From NCBI RefSeq assembly GCF_056746865.1, contig NZ_JBWKMP010000002.1: a stretch of 64,000 bases of DNA. The stretch is one strand, 5' to 3'. Below, in pieces: positions 21,001 to 27,000 of the stretch (position 1 is its first letter; each line of letters starts with the position of its first letter). Made by a program: the position numbers. This DNA is from a plasmid.

Positions 21001-24000
21001 TTCATCGTATTGGTGAGATACATCAGTCGATTCCAGTGAGTTACTAGATTCGCTGTGATGCGAAAACCTTTCCAGCCCATCAATAAGATAGTTAAAAGGA
21101 TTGAGACCCTCATGGCGAACACGGAAATCTGGAACAAAACTATTTTGTGTGAGCAAGGGAACTAATTCGTTTCTTTCATTAAGACAAACCAGTTTTGCAG
21201 CTTTACTTCCATCATCGACAACGATTTTTAAAGCTTCAGTGATATCCTGCAATGATTGTGAAACAGGACTTTCAGATTTTAATAGTTCAGCCATAAAAAC
21301 TCTCTTTTATTAATAGGACCATATTAGATATTAACTTTATACATTAATGGTGACCTATTATCAACATCAACACTATTAAAAAAATACGTAACTCTATGTT
21401 ATTTCAGCATCCTTCCATTTTAAATACATTACCGTTAAATATCCTGTATTCATGAAGTAAACATGTTTATAAAGGAGCCAATTATAATCAGAAAGTTACT
21501 TTGCATCCTAAGTATGAACTGTTTGAGAGCCAGGACTGGAGCCTTTACCAGTAAGTAACAAAGGTCCTTAGGCTTAGAATCCAAAATGACGCCTTTATGT
21601 AAAAAAATCATAGCTCGAAATACCGTATCATCGATGTAAACATACGTAGAGGAATTTATGGCAGCTGAGCACGTCCAAACTATAGACCTTACAAACTTCT
21701 CGGGAAGGATTTTCTTTCTGGCAGATCCTCATGGACATTACTCTGCGCTGTGCAACTTGATTCAATCAGTTACAAAGCCAGAAGAAGAGATAGTAATTTT
21801 CTCTACTGGAAATTTGTTTGACTATGGGCCGGAACCCATAGAGTTGATGAAGGCGATAAACAGTGGCTTTTTCGATGGACGTTTTGTGAGGCATTTCTCA
21901 GCTGCCGGAGCCGGAGAAGAAATGTTAAAAAAATTGTTACCATTAAACAAAGACCGGAGAACATTTTACCCCAGCACATACCTCAATGAGAGATGGTGTG
22001 TAATGGGCGGAAAGTGGCATAAAGCTGTAAATCGTTACTATTTAGAGGAAGAGGTAAAAAAACTTCTTAATACCCAGCTTGGTACGATGATGCAGATTTT
22101 ACTCAAAGGCGATATAAAAATTGGGGTTTGCCCTTCTGATTACGCCCCTATCCGCACATCATTCACTGATACTTATAATGCGCTTCAAGCATTCAACTAT
22201 GCCAATGTGAATATTTTTCAGAGCCAGTTTCTATTCGGTATGGACCATGCCGTAATACCAATGATGATAAATGACGTCAACCTTATGGTCCTAGGTAGGA
22301 ATCCTGTAAACAGCATTCGAAAAGCCCATGGTCGTACTCAAAACAATCTTCCAGTACTGATCGGTAATTGTTTACATATAAATACTGGATCACTCTATAT
22401 GTCAAAATTAGAAGACCAGGTAATAGTTGCTCCGGGTATACCGCCAACTGACTCACCAGCACTTACATTAGTAGAAATAATCATGAAGAACAATCCAGTT
22501 TTATTGTGTCATCAGCTAATACAAACAACAAACAAGTTTTATTCACTTAAAACCTATCCGTTAGAACTCGATTCGATTGAAAACAACATTGAGGTAACAA
22601 GATGAAGATAAAATGGAAGATTATCTCAATTTCAACATTACTTTTGCATCTTCACGCAGCAGCTGCACCACATCAAGAGAAAGAGCAAAGAAAAGATGCT
22701 TTTTCTTCTGCCGCTCAGAAAAGTGATTCACTTATATCTGCTAAAGCGGAGCTTATAAACGGAAGGTGGTTTATAAATGGTAAATATAGGCCTGTTCTAA
22801 AGACCAGCATGACCAAAACCAATTTCTTAGAAATCATGAATGTTTCAAATAAAGAATCACTTTTTATGGTGATACCGAAACTTGAGTATAATATCATTGC
22901 CAAAAATAAAATCTTACTAAATGAAAAAATTGCATTAAGCGAAGGCACATCCGGAAAAAGCATTATTTGGGTCGAGCCTAAATCAAGTATAACTATATCG
23001 TTTATAAATGACCTTGCTAATACGCCCCTTCAGGCTATCGTTTCGATCACAAGAAACAACAAAGATGTAATTGCCATCTTTGGACCGGATCAGGGTAAAG
23101 GGTTTACTCTTCCCGGGAAAGACATCTAATGATCAAGTGTCCGTTCCTGACGATTCTGATCTAAATATAAAAAAACTTAACATACCTCAAAGTGTTGGTA
23201 ATTCAGTAACCATCAATCCTAAAGAGAAGAATTACCTCTTAGTTGGACAAGTAAAATATAAAATCTTATCTCTTCCGAAATATCAACATTTAGAATTTTC
23301 TGAACCGGTTTATATTGAGAAAAGAAAAGATATCCTCGGTGGTTATCGTTATTGGACGAAAGAAACAATTCTCTACCCCGGTGAATCATTATCTTTTATA
23401 ACCAGCGCCAAAAACAATCTAAGGAAGCGGGATGATTAAAGTTATCACACTTTTATTGTTTGCATTACTGACTGGTTGTCAGTCAGTAGAAAGTAAAATC
23501 GAAGAACTCCCGATAGTTGGTTTTGACCCTATTCTATACAATAAAAGTGAGGCCTTTACTGACGGAAAAGTTACTTTACGTGTCGAAAGTTCAGGAACTG
23601 ATGTTTGGCTTGTCGCCAAGAATGGAACCAGAAGTTTTATTGAGCTTTCAGGCCTAACGCTAGGTGGTAGTCGTTGTGCTTACAATGCCCGTAGTAAGCA
23701 ACTTTTGCCCCCAGGCAGCGTAAGCACATTCGTAGTTCCTACGGTTGGAATGCTTGGACTTTGCTTCAACAATGAAGATCAACTTATGTTTATTAACCGT
23801 GCTTTTAGCAGAATCTCTCCCAAAGCAAAAGGAAAAGATTCTCTTTCTCTTTTATTTTCTGTTAGTTACGATTTTCCCGGAAAAGCGGACCTAATTAATA
23901 ACCACGATTTTCAAGAGTTATATCTTTTATTTTTGAATGAGGATAATCTATGAAAAAAACATTAATTGTTATTTTATTATGTTTTTGTCACTCAGTTTTA

Positions 24001-27000
24001 GCATATCCATACCGTATCTATACTGTCCCGGAAGGGGCATTAGTAAAAAACATACTAACTAATGAATATCTAGGAAAAACCCCTGTGGTTGTGGACGTGA
24101 GCAATACCGAAGCTGGTTCTACTTTTGGGATTTCTTTATTTAGACATGAAAATGTTGCTATAAAGATTTTTACAGTAATGCCTTCAGCAGAAAATAATTT
24201 TGCTGTTTCTGGACTCAGATGTTGCAACTATGTCATTGCCGGGCAAAGCACCTTTAAACGTAGTAAATGATGGGAATGGCGCTTCTGTTCATATAGAACT
24301 AAGACCTTATATGTCTGAACCTGCGCACACCCCATATTAATATAACAAGAAATTAAAAATATAAATCATATGAACTGCATCATAAAGATGCAGTTCAATA
24401 TTTATTCTGATACTTTTAATTTTTCTTTTATGAACTCCTCTAGCTCCTTAATAAAACCCGCACTTATCCTATTGAATTCAATGCGAATTTTTCTTCCAGT
24501 ATTGTTTTTACTGATTCTTGCATACTTATCTTTGTTATCAAAAGTAATAAGATCACTTGTTTCCCATTTTGTGGAATAAGATTTTTCACAAACACTTTCC
24601 ACAGATTGTGTGATTTTCTCCATTACAACTTTTTGGGCAACTTGGAAGATCTCCAATGTCTAAATCTTTTGTTTCCTCTTTAACATTATCTATTACTTCA
24701 TCTAAAGGAAATAGATTTTTTTGCACATATTTCTGTAAACGAGACAAGCGACTATAATAGGAGTTCGGTATTCCTTCATAATCCGGGAATAAAGAGATCA
24801 ATGTTTCGTCAATACGTGCCGCCTGGATTCTTTTGGCTACCGATACATGACTAATCCCAAGATATGCTGCGAGTTCTTCATTAGTAGAAAATCCCTTTTC
24901 TTCCATTTTCTTGATAAATTGAAACCCAACTTCTCTATATGAAAATTTTCGAGATGTTTGTGCTGCGGATATAATTGAATTTATATCATCTTCGGTTAGT
25001 TCATCCGGTAGTACCCACAGGGGAGATCCTTTTCTGCCTTTATACAGCAGAAACGTCTGCGACTTCCTTCTATTAATAAATAAACCCCATCTCTTTTTAC
25101 AGCGATCCCTTCGGTATCGACCCCTCTTTCTTCAATCTGCTTAAGAATATCTCTAACAGAATAATCTGTAAGGGCTTCTTGATTTCGTGGGTTTGCTGGA
25201 TGGACTAAGGTCTCCTTCTCCACTCTCTGGGCTGGAACAATCACATGTTCCGCTTCAAGTCTTCGGCCCTTATGAAGAGTGAATAACTTTTTTATGCGAG
25301 GTGCTGTTTTCAAACCCGCAAGACCTGAACGGTGACCGACTTCTGTCCGCTTTGGTGCGTTTAAATATCGAGATTTATCATTCCCGATATGTTGCTCATC
25401 GCTCATGCGTTAACTCCTTGCTTAGCTGAAAAACTTTTTATTTCATTTATAAATTGTTGATATACCTGTAATACAGATTCTTCTGCGACATCAAGTTGCT
25501 TTGCGGAACAAAGTTCCTCTGATTTTTTGATATCAAGCACTGTACGCCCTTTGGAAGCAGCTGCCTTAAATGCTTCAGAATTTTTTATGTTAGCGGACAT
25601 CAAAAGGTCCTGAACAGTTCTGATTAATTTATCCAAAACTATTCTTTCATATGGACTTTTGTCATCAACATTGACAGCAAGAACTTTGAACCATTTTAAA
25701 TTATCGCCCTTACTTGGTGATTGTTTAAACCTTTCACTTATTGTAAGCATGAAGTCTGTAGTAGAGGCGTAATCATATTCACGTGGTGACACTGCGACAA
25801 GAATCCCATCGGCCGCTTCGTCAGCAGCCCAGATCAAAGGTGAATCTTCAGGTGGAGTGTCTATAATAATCAAATCATAGTTCTGCTTCAGTACCGGTAA
25901 GATAACTTCCTTGAAACGTAGTAACAAAGACGTTCGTTCTTCTCTAGAACATTGCCAGTATTTATCTTTAAAACGAGCATCTGTCGGAAATGCCGTTATC
26001 ACGTCCAAGTTTGGCAGATGCGTTGAAAAAGGCATATTAGTGATGATTTCTTCTTCAGAGAATCCTGAATCTAAATATTTTTTATACTCAGAATTTTCTT
26101 CATAAATTCCAAGGATTGCATCAATTGCTGTAAGGAAGACATCATCTTCTGAGACACTTTGAATCATGCTGCTTCCAATCGAACCTTGTGGGTCCCATTC
26201 GATCATTAATACACGTGCATTCAGTTGTAGATCTAAAGCAGCTGCTACTGCTAAAGCTACAGATGTAGTGCTTTTCCCTGTACCGCCTTTATGATTCTGA
26301 GTAACAATAGCTCTGCTAAAGTAATGATCGCGGTACTTGGGATAACCCAGGGCATCCATTATTTTTTGAACATCCCAGCGGGTGTAAAGATGATTTTTGT
26401 TTTGATAAATAGGTGCACCAACAACTTCTTTTTCTTCTAAGTCCGAAAGTATTTTATTGAACGTTACTCGTGACTTCCCAAAAAAATCAGAGAGATTTTT
26501 TTTATTTAAACAGTGGTTGTAGATCAGTCTATCAACACCATCAACACTATCATCAGAAACAGATACTCTTGATGAAGCCATCAGAGATTCCTTAAGAGAA
26601 ATCTGCTCGCTTTTCATGCGCTGACCAACGAGGGCGATCTTTTCAAGTAAATTCATGGTTATGACCTTTTTGCACTGAAAACCGACTTTTACGCATATAT
26701 GTAAACTTTACGCATAATGCGTCCATTTCATTGTTATACGTACAATTCTATCCTTTGTTTCAATCCTAAGCTAATGTTTGTTTACTTTTTTATGATTTTT
26801 TGTGAGCTTAACTTGCAGATGAGAGCTCAGACTCTCTAGTCCTTAATGCTCATTCTTTTTAAACCACGATTCTTGTCGACTTCTCTACGCTTTGACGTTA
26901 TGAGCTCCATTAATGAATCTTAGCCTACCCTATTTCTTGCTTAAGAATTTAATTCTTCTCTCACCGGTGTGCTGATTTAAGTTTTCCTAACTGTGAATCG

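Follow-up and report, generated by a model that had tools for sequence, protein, structure and literature searches.

A probable IncHI2 ortholog of the R27 Z operon, carrying the entry-exclusion gene eexB, lies between two partition modules

The Z operon of the IncHI1 plasmid R27 comprises R0015 (trhO), R0016 (eexB), R0017 and R0018 (trhZ). It lies in Tra2 between parM/parR and parB/parA, on the opposite strand. TrhR/TrhY act as its activators and HtdA as its repressor, while parA and parB are not induced along with the tra operons (PMC7366339). At 25 C, mutation of htdA raises all four genes together by 8- to 17-fold (PMC7366339 supplement). Second-hand accounts describe EexB as mediating the exclusion of incoming IncHI plasmids (PMC11493245), and as an outer membrane protein that exclusion requires in donor and recipient alike (PMC11493245; PMC8923210). 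Also second-hand, trhO and trhZ are reported to raise the transfer frequency of R27 (PMC11628540). The operon of trhO, eexB (orf16), orf17 and trhZ with its entry-exclusion gene is thus previously described in IncHI plasmids, and the copy presented here is an already known IncHI2 version. The annotation of p13E573-HI2 names the first gene TrhO, and IncHI2 records label the operon TrhO/Orf16/Orf17/TrhZ. Our literature search found no exclusion or transfer assay for the IncHI2 Z-operon genes.

The window, a plasmid stretch of 64,000 nucleotides, carries a tightly packed plus-strand cluster from position 21658, amid a block of minus-strand genes. We are confident that these genes are orthologous to the Z operon of R27 and make up its IncHI2 version, a set of four translationally coupled genes accessory to conjugation. 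The first gene, trhO (21658-22605), encodes a cytoplasmic protein of 315 aa. It is followed by eexB (22602-23439), orf17 (23432-23953) and trhZ (23950-24340), which encode a predicted exported protein of 278 aa in relatives, a lipoprotein of 173 aa and an exported protein of 129 aa in relatives, respectively. Start and stop codons overlap as ATGA at 22602-22605 and 23950-23953, and as ATGATTAA at 23432-23439. Shine-Dalgarno-like sequences precede every start. A preliminary description made from the sequence had already recognized a translationally coupled cluster running against the surrounding genes, and the overlaps bear this out. R27 has these four genes in identical order, site and strand, with matching overlaps, and the window's Tra2 genes are all collinear with those of R27. 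R27 proteins map in order at 21649-24334 (tblastn). Identities to R0015-R0018, computed with the intact IncHI2 protein forms, are 72, 45, 62 and 78% over full or nearly full length. The window differs from R27 in its IncHI2 backbone, in a strongly diverged EexB and in private indels that interrupt eexB and trhZ. The operon region matches 1,127 plasmid records. The earlier suggestion of an uncharacterised module is hence superseded, as work on R27 has named the operon, defined its transcription and studied mutants, and IncHI2 records annotate it. The reading as a transfer-region envelope module, separate from either par system, is upheld. Exclusion as a likely role also gains ground, as the second gene is orthologous to R27 eexB, whose product is the exclusion protein listed for the Z operon (PMC7366339 supplement; PMC11493245). 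Judging from the sequence, an exclusion function of the IncHI2 EexB is likely.

Gene number and operon end both need correction. An additional G at position 23115 (CCCGGG in place of CCCGG) splits eexB into the ORFs 22602-23129 and 23071-23439, which had been counted as two genes. Because these two ORFs are halves of one 278-aa gene, the operon has four genes rather than five and three predicted exported products (EexB, Orf17 and TrhZ) rather than four, next to the cytoplasmic TrhO. Predicted signal peptides on the second and last products and the lipobox on the lipoprotein otherwise agree with the proposed export. The gene eexB is intact in R27 and in the 99.9%-identical plasmid L001. Similarly, the proposed operon end at 24270 reflects a truncation, with a +1 indel plus substitutions at 24215-24220 leaving a 106-aa trhZ ORF where relatives have 129 aa and end at window position 24340. 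R27 TrhZ accordingly maps on the window as two pieces, 23950-24249 and 24218-24334 (tblastn).

The flanks match the placement between two partition modules given in the preliminary description. Upstream, annotation and comparison with R27 identify a minus-strand Par2 module (19607-21294), with parM at 20257-21294 (80% protein identity to R27) and a parR-like gene at 19607-20245 (60%). Downstream, the minus-strand parB/parA module (Par1) spans 24402-26656, with parB split by indels at 24646 and 25019. The divergent parM-trhO spacer (21295-21657, 363 bp) presumably contains the Z-operon promoter. The promoter search returned no strong sigma-70 match upstream of trhO, and no clear repeat or operator was found in the spacer. 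The spacer aligns with the R27 region in patches only, and a four-way spacer alignment was uninformative. Between the convergent trhZ and parB lies a hairpin at 24371-24397, with an 11-bp stem including five G-C pairs and a 5-nt loop. The predicted RNA fold reaches -17.6 kcal/mol (z -5.56), and none of 200 shuffles folds as well. The hairpin noted earlier is thus indeed strong, and is likely a bidirectional terminator. In two distant metagenome contigs (L003 and L004), the whole four-gene module again lies between parM and traC, divergent from parM, adjoining traC and with no parAB. This recurrence beside parM and traC goes beyond the literature we found.

Of the four proteins, EexB has diverged most. 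The mature EexB follows an N-terminal signal-peptide-like segment that is moderately hydrophobic and ends in AAA. Over 85% of its length, EexB is 45% identical to the R27 protein, with 58% in the N-domain and 33% in the C-terminal part. Across distant homologs, the N-domain is 52-60% identical and the C-domain 19-33%. Alleles 78-87% identical to the window EexB were also found. The structural model shows two tandem cupredoxin-like beta-sandwich domains. Copper ligands (HxH, HCH, type-1 Cys/His/Met) are absent, with neither HxH nor HCH in any of 17 EexB homologs. Counted from residue 41 on, these homologs contain 0-4 His and 0-1 Cys each, and they share no invariant His, Cys or Met. Profile searches gave only noise against NCBIfam and an E of 0.15 against the Pfam Cu-oxidase family. 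EexB is hence predicted to consist of two copper-free cupredoxin-like domains, of which the N-domain is conserved and the C-domain variable. This model-based view goes beyond the literature we found.

Orf17 carries a lipobox, LLTG-C16, after the hydrophobic segment VITLLLFALL, with Gln at +2. The R27 (LVTGC), L003 (ICGC) and L004 (LSGC) homologs retain the lipobox Cys. The 62% identity to R27 R0017 spans 88% of the length, and R0017 is listed as "Lipoprotein (Z)" (PMC7366339 supplement). Orf17 has no sequence match in Pfam, NCBIfam or PDB. TrhZ carries a signal peptide, and residues 21-51, with a literal PEGA motif, match PF08308 weakly (E 0.049). Among four TrhZ homologs, two match PF08308 at E<=0.1 and none at 0.001. 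TrhZ finds nothing in NCBIfam and no significant PDB sequence match (best E 2.6). The only other plus-strand gene in the window's Tra2 block is orf4/R0004 (5752-6621), which encodes a lipoprotein with Ala at +2 after the lipobox Cys. By the general +2 sorting rule, this residue predicts an outer-membrane lipoprotein. EexA, the second R27 exclusion protein, is reported to be in the cytoplasmic membrane. The gene orf4/R0004 is not named eexA in the literature found.

TrhO is a divergent member of the metallophosphoesterases with substituted metal-ligand motifs, as the preliminary description had proposed. A search with phosphatase profiles, suggested there as a check, matches TrhO to Pfam Metallophos (PF00149, E 6.3e-5). 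The companion check for exclusion families returned no Pfam or NCBIfam match for any of the four proteins. The closest sequence and fold relatives of TrhO are the lambda Ser/Thr phosphatase, E. coli PrpA/PrpB and ApaH, with lambda phosphatase 1g5b as best Foldseek match (E 3.9e-8) to a model of moderate confidence (pLDDT 65.7). Compared to these enzymes, TrhO is about 90 residues longer, has an extra C-terminal beta region and is altered in all five catalytic motifs. GDxHG reads ADPHG, with a His that is not kept across the TrhO family, and GDxxDRG reads GNLFDYG, which is invariant in the family. GNHE reads GAGE, the motif IV His is replaced by Pro or Ser in the family (CPSD here), and GH of motif V has become GR (His to Arg). 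Two of six canonical PPP metal ligands are kept, and D23 alone is invariant in this small family. The model also matches Vps29, a non-catalytic scaffold protein with the MPE fold.

We suggest that TrhO is most likely a non-catalytic, or non-canonically catalytic, cytoplasmic factor raising mating efficiency. EexB would be exported via its Sec signal peptide and may stay at the outer membrane aided by the Orf17 lipoprotein, the small exported TrhZ, or both. The conserved N-domain of EexB may touch a conserved envelope or T4SS partner, and exclusion specificity may be set by the fast-evolving C-domain, with like recognizing like when cells mate. These roles for Orf17, TrhZ, TrhO and both EexB domains are what we infer. 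Taken further, the four products might make up a single conserved accessory unit of H-type conjugation systems that spans the envelope, with TrhO as a dead-phosphatase scaffold at the cytoplasmic side, and copper-free EexB held at the outer membrane via Orf17 and the PEGA-like TrhZ, its C-domain recognizing like mating cells. We put this forward tentatively, as a possible arrangement with the balance of probability against it. If true, the same unit would favour productive mating and at the same time delimit exclusion groups within IncHI2.

A different view of TrhO is that of an active PPP-type phosphatase or Ap4A-type hydrolase, with the operon as a signalling module that controls mating or exclusion through dephosphorylation. 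Such an activity would fit the homology and the predicted fold, both resembling lambda phosphatase and ApaH, as well as the "phosphodiesterase" label of TrhO in the R27 table (PMC7366339 supplement). Five His residues invariant across the TrhO family (H121, H197, H224, H240 and H285) could also form a non-canonical site. However, the degraded motifs, D23 as the sole invariant canonical ligand and the resemblance of the model to a non-catalytic scaffold argue against catalysis, as do scores of 23.6 and 14 bits against the NCBIfam PrpA/PrpB equivalog models, far below the cut-offs of 332 and 326. We regard an active enzyme as quite unlikely. The interruptions in the window likewise allow two readings. 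They are present in the sequence as given, and eexB and trhZ could be real pseudogenes, making the plasmid an exclusion-defective variant devoid of both functions rather than an erroneous record. Broken EexB forms are also found elsewhere: IncHI1 eexB alleles carry frameshifts in this same linker between the domains, and Enterobacter has EexB forms of 177 aa. Yet the extra G at 23115 appears in none of 1,123 matching plasmid records and the trhZ variant at 24215-24220 in none of 1,125. The comparison covered 14.4 kb (12399-26800) outside the tandem array. All five single-base indels in it disrupt genes (htdA, eexB, trhZ and parB twice) that are intact in L001 and R27, and trhK is likewise split. 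The two parB indels, 373 nt apart, are opposite in sign, as is typical of base-calling errors. Genuine pseudogenes are hence unlikely, and the split eexB and truncated trhZ more likely represent sequence errors than biology.

The location of the operon raises the question of a role in plasmid partition, for instance as a ParM/ParR accessory sharing the divergent promoter region. The cluster sits between two par modules and is always divergent from parM, even in L003 and L004. The predicted export of three of the four products does not suit DNA segregation though, and the R27 operon follows the regulators of the tra operons, TrhR/TrhY and HtdA, rather than parA and parB, which are not induced (PMC7366339). 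The module is also found equally beside traC in the two metagenome contigs lacking parAB, so that a partition function appears very improbable. Small exported proteins of no known family on their own strand could also point to a cargo cassette for toxin/immunity, contact-dependent inhibition or anti-phage defence, and a toxin/immunity-like set was among the options raised initially. This option is not borne out, as PADLOC matched none of the four proteins and neither Pfam nor NCBIfam revealed toxin, nuclease or immunity domains. The G+C content of the operon equals that of the flanking backbone, and the examined members of the very small TrhO family (L001, R27, L003, L004 and L005) are all within transfer regions. 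We consider a cargo cassette extremely improbable and reject the defence or toxin reading.

IncHI2 plasmids rank among the major carriers of mcr and carbapenemase genes, and limits on their entry into cells with a related plasmid are thus of practical interest. With the operon and its exclusion role described in R27 and annotated in IncHI2 records, the finding itself adds nothing new. Possibly useful are the corrected gene count, from five to four, and the flagging of private frameshifts, as well as the evidence against canonical catalytic residues in the "phosphodiesterase" TrhO. The predicted copper-free two-domain EexB with its variable C-domain also lends itself to a domain-swap test of exclusion specificity.

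Among the closest known systems, the E. coli protein SufI (FtsP) has a multicopper-oxidase fold, with three domains compared to two in EexB. SufI shares no significant sequence similarity with EexB, and its role is in cell division, not conjugation. Profiles for TraT, TraS, TrbK and Eex of SXT in Pfam and NCBIfam match none of the four proteins, and TraT/TraS show no detectable sequence relation to Z-operon proteins. Outer-membrane EexB has been likened to TraT, though R27 EexB reportedly has to be present in the donor too, unlike what was shown for TraT (PMC11493245). TraT is a lipoprotein, whereas EexB itself is not. The F plasmid nevertheless resembles the IncHI plasmids in encoding its exclusion functions, surface exclusion by TraT and entry exclusion by TraS, within the transfer region.

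The compact plus-strand gene cluster that begins at 21658 in the window, according to both the ORF listing and direct reading of the sequence, corresponds to the Z operon of IncHI plasmids. Its four proteins share 72, 45, 62 and 78% identity with R0015-R0018 of the IncHI1 reference plasmid R27, respectively, and the Tra2 genes of the window are all collinear with those of R27. In their supplementary gene table, Gibert et al. 2020 assign the four R27 genes to Z as R0015 trhO ("phosphodiesterase"), R0016 eexB ("exclusion protein"), R0017 ("lipoprotein") and R0018 trhZ, flanked by the ParM-like R0014 and by parB/parA (R0019/R0020) (PMC7366339). 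The four genes rise jointly by 8- to 17-fold in an R27 htdA mutant at 25 C (PMC7366339), and the literature places the operon under TrhR/TrhY and HtdA control. IncHI2 records carry the annotations TrhO, Orf16, Orf17 and TrhZ, and the IncHI2 entry of a transfer-gene database includes trhO, orf16, orf17 and trhZ (PMC10682676). Orthology to R27, the literature and the existing IncHI2 annotations thus identify an operon that is already named and partly characterized, and the finding itself is already known. The preliminary description had suggested an uncharacterized module, which is wrong, and its guess at an exclusion function was right in that the second gene is the ortholog of R27 eexB. With reference to Gunton et al. 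2008, a paper from 2024 locates IncHI1 EexB at the outer membrane and states that EexA and EexB are required in both donor and recipient (PMC11493245; see also PMC8923210). A passage in a review credits trhO and trhZ with raising transfer frequency (PMC11628540). Matches to the 3.1-kb region occur in 1,127 plasmid records, of which 681 are at least 99% identical, and the hosts are chiefly Escherichia, Salmonella and Enterobacter. The two matching records examined for typing are IncHI2A / MOBH / MPF_F. A second RepHIA-like coding region in the window (55330-56182, plus strand, two pieces, 40-51% identity to R27 RepHIA) is separated by about 14 kb from the one at 41226-42098 and is probably the second IncHI2 replicon gene.

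The cluster is embedded among partition genes, all on the minus strand, with a parR-like gene (19607-20245) and parM (20257-21294) upstream and parB and parA (24402-26656) downstream. Such a location could suggest a partition accessory, and exported products could likewise suggest a toxin or defense set. Neither fits the evidence as well as the Z operon. The genes are tightly packed, with ATGA start/stop overlaps at 22602-22605 and 23950-23953, a further overlap, ATGATTAA, at 23432-23439, and a Shine-Dalgarno-like sequence ahead of every start. A hairpin with an 11-bp stem (24371-24397) sits between the cluster and the convergent parB and folds as RNA at -17.6 kcal/mol (z -5.56), a stability equaled by none of 200 shuffles. 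The G+C content resembles that of the flanking backbone. The spacer between parM and trhO holds a 53-aa ORF (21450-21611, minus strand) that is unlikely to be a real gene; the IncHI2 record p13E573-HI2 annotates it as a hypothetical protein, and RefSeq records leave it unannotated.

The cluster observed in the preliminary description is largely real apart from its gene count and end. Five genes ending at 24270 had been claimed, whereas the near-identical plasmid NZ_CP033636 (99.9% identity) and R27 have four genes each, with products of 315, 278, 173 and 129 aa in the former, IncHI2 plasmid and 323, 279, 173 and 130 aa in R27. One G too many at 23115 (CCCGGG instead of CCCGG) breaks the 278-aa gene eexB into ORFs at 22602-23129 and 23071-23439. 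At 24215-24220, a +1 indel and substitutions shorten trhZ to 106 aa, and its true end is 24340. Short queries spanning each site found no identical variant among 1,123 and 1,125 records, respectively. In the 14.4 kb compared (12399-26800, clear of a tandem array), each of the five single-base indels disrupts a gene intact in both NZ_CP033636 and R27, namely htdA (19114), eexB (23115), trhZ (24217) and parB twice (24646 and 25019, opposite in sign). Near 37780, trhK is likewise split and intact in both other plasmids; these indels are private to the record. The changes are absent from matching records and break genes intact elsewhere, and we therefore regard them as likely sequence errors. A true pseudogene state of eexB and trhZ is conceivable but fits the evidence less well. 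The tandem array (27061-29603) is G+C-rich and occupies the whole gap between parA and trhC, with 10.4 copies of a 249-bp unit at 68% matches. It is arranged differently in NZ_CP033636, elsewhere 99.6% identical, and the corresponding place in R27 is a 3-kb gap lacking annotation.

An active phosphatase would be in line with the fold of TrhO. The protein has no signal sequence, weakly matches Pfam Metallophos (E 6.3e-5), and its NCBIfam PrpA/PrpB matches fall far under the cut-offs. Lambda phosphatase is both its closest PDB relative by sequence and the top match of its predicted fold (E 3.9e-8; moderate model quality, pLDDT 65.7). Fold matches of the model also include Vps29, known as a non-catalytic MPE-fold protein. 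In alignment with canonical relatives, all five PPP motifs are altered (GDxHG to ADPHG, GDxxDRG to GNLFDYG, GNHE to GAGE, His to Pro in motif IV and His to Arg in motif V), and the substituted metal ligands initially described for the lead protein are therefore correct. The family keeps the substituted forms, with GNLFDxG and GxGE invariant and the motif I His variable. It is very small, with 14 clusters in a collection of 5.8 billion proteins and, in a set of 1.84 billion, 6 representatives below 1e-30. Judging from these motifs, canonical phosphatase chemistry is unlikely and a non-canonical site built from invariant His residues is conceivable. Within the Z operon, TrhO probably acts without canonical catalysis, a reading that fits the evidence better than an active phosphatase.

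EexB has a signal-like N-terminal segment ending in AAA, and its AlphaFold model (pLDDT 78.6) predicts a pair of all-beta domains, at about residues 44-162 and 200-277, with a low-confidence linker between them; the window frameshift falls in this linker. None of 17 homologs carries an HxH or HCH motif, and invariant His, Cys or Met residues are absent; on these residues, EexB is therefore judged not to be a copper enzyme. Identity among distant homologs is 52-60% in the N-domain and 19-33% in the C-domain. Of the four proteins, EexB differs most between IncHI1 and IncHI2, and alleles 78-87% identical to the window form also exist. This divergence would fit a specificity determinant, with the C-domain possibly setting exclusion specificity. 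Other EexB forms (P0037, P0038 and P0019) have breaks in this linker too: IncHI1-type alleles shift frame just past GPDQGK, and Enterobacter hormaechei has 177-aa forms. Such forms could reflect recurrent C-domain loss or a recurrent sequencing artefact.

Orf17 and TrhZ have neither a curated-family match nor a solved-structure match by sequence. The Orf17 lipobox is LLTG-C16, with the Cys conserved in every homolog examined. The residue after the lipobox Cys governs the membrane sorting of lipoproteins, and Gln at +2 predicts outer-membrane sorting of Orf17. TrhZ begins with a typical Sec signal peptide and gives only a weak match to the PEGA domain (E 0.049), which takes in a literal PEGA motif. 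Orf17, TrhZ or both might help to keep EexB at the outer membrane. Elsewhere in this Tra2 block the plus strand has a single gene (5752-6621), whose product, a lipoprotein homolog with the lipobox LSGC, is 76% identical to R27 R0004/orf4. R0004 expression in R27 is very high, at 9779 units in the supplement table (PMC7366339). The gene in the window is one possible candidate for the second exclusion gene, eexA. What the analysis adds is modest: structural predictions for EexB and TrhO, and a flag on the frame-breaking changes in this record.

Two distant relatives of TrhO (about 30% identity) trace to metagenome contigs, L003 and L004, where a TrhO-like gene precedes EexB-like, lipoprotein and TrhZ-like genes (8001-10817 and 8001-11451, respectively). 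The orf17 and trhZ homologs of L004 are separated by an inserted ydjM-like membrane-protein gene in opposite orientation. The same module thus recurs beside parM and traC, and the four genes are therefore co-inherited with the transfer genes as a single unit. An IncHI1B plasmid has also been reported with TrhZ and TrhO adjoining TraC (PMC6657655). In both contigs the module lies directly between divergent parM and convergent traC, whereas in IncHI1 and IncHI2 plasmids the parAB module, missing there in the contigs, follows the operon downstream.
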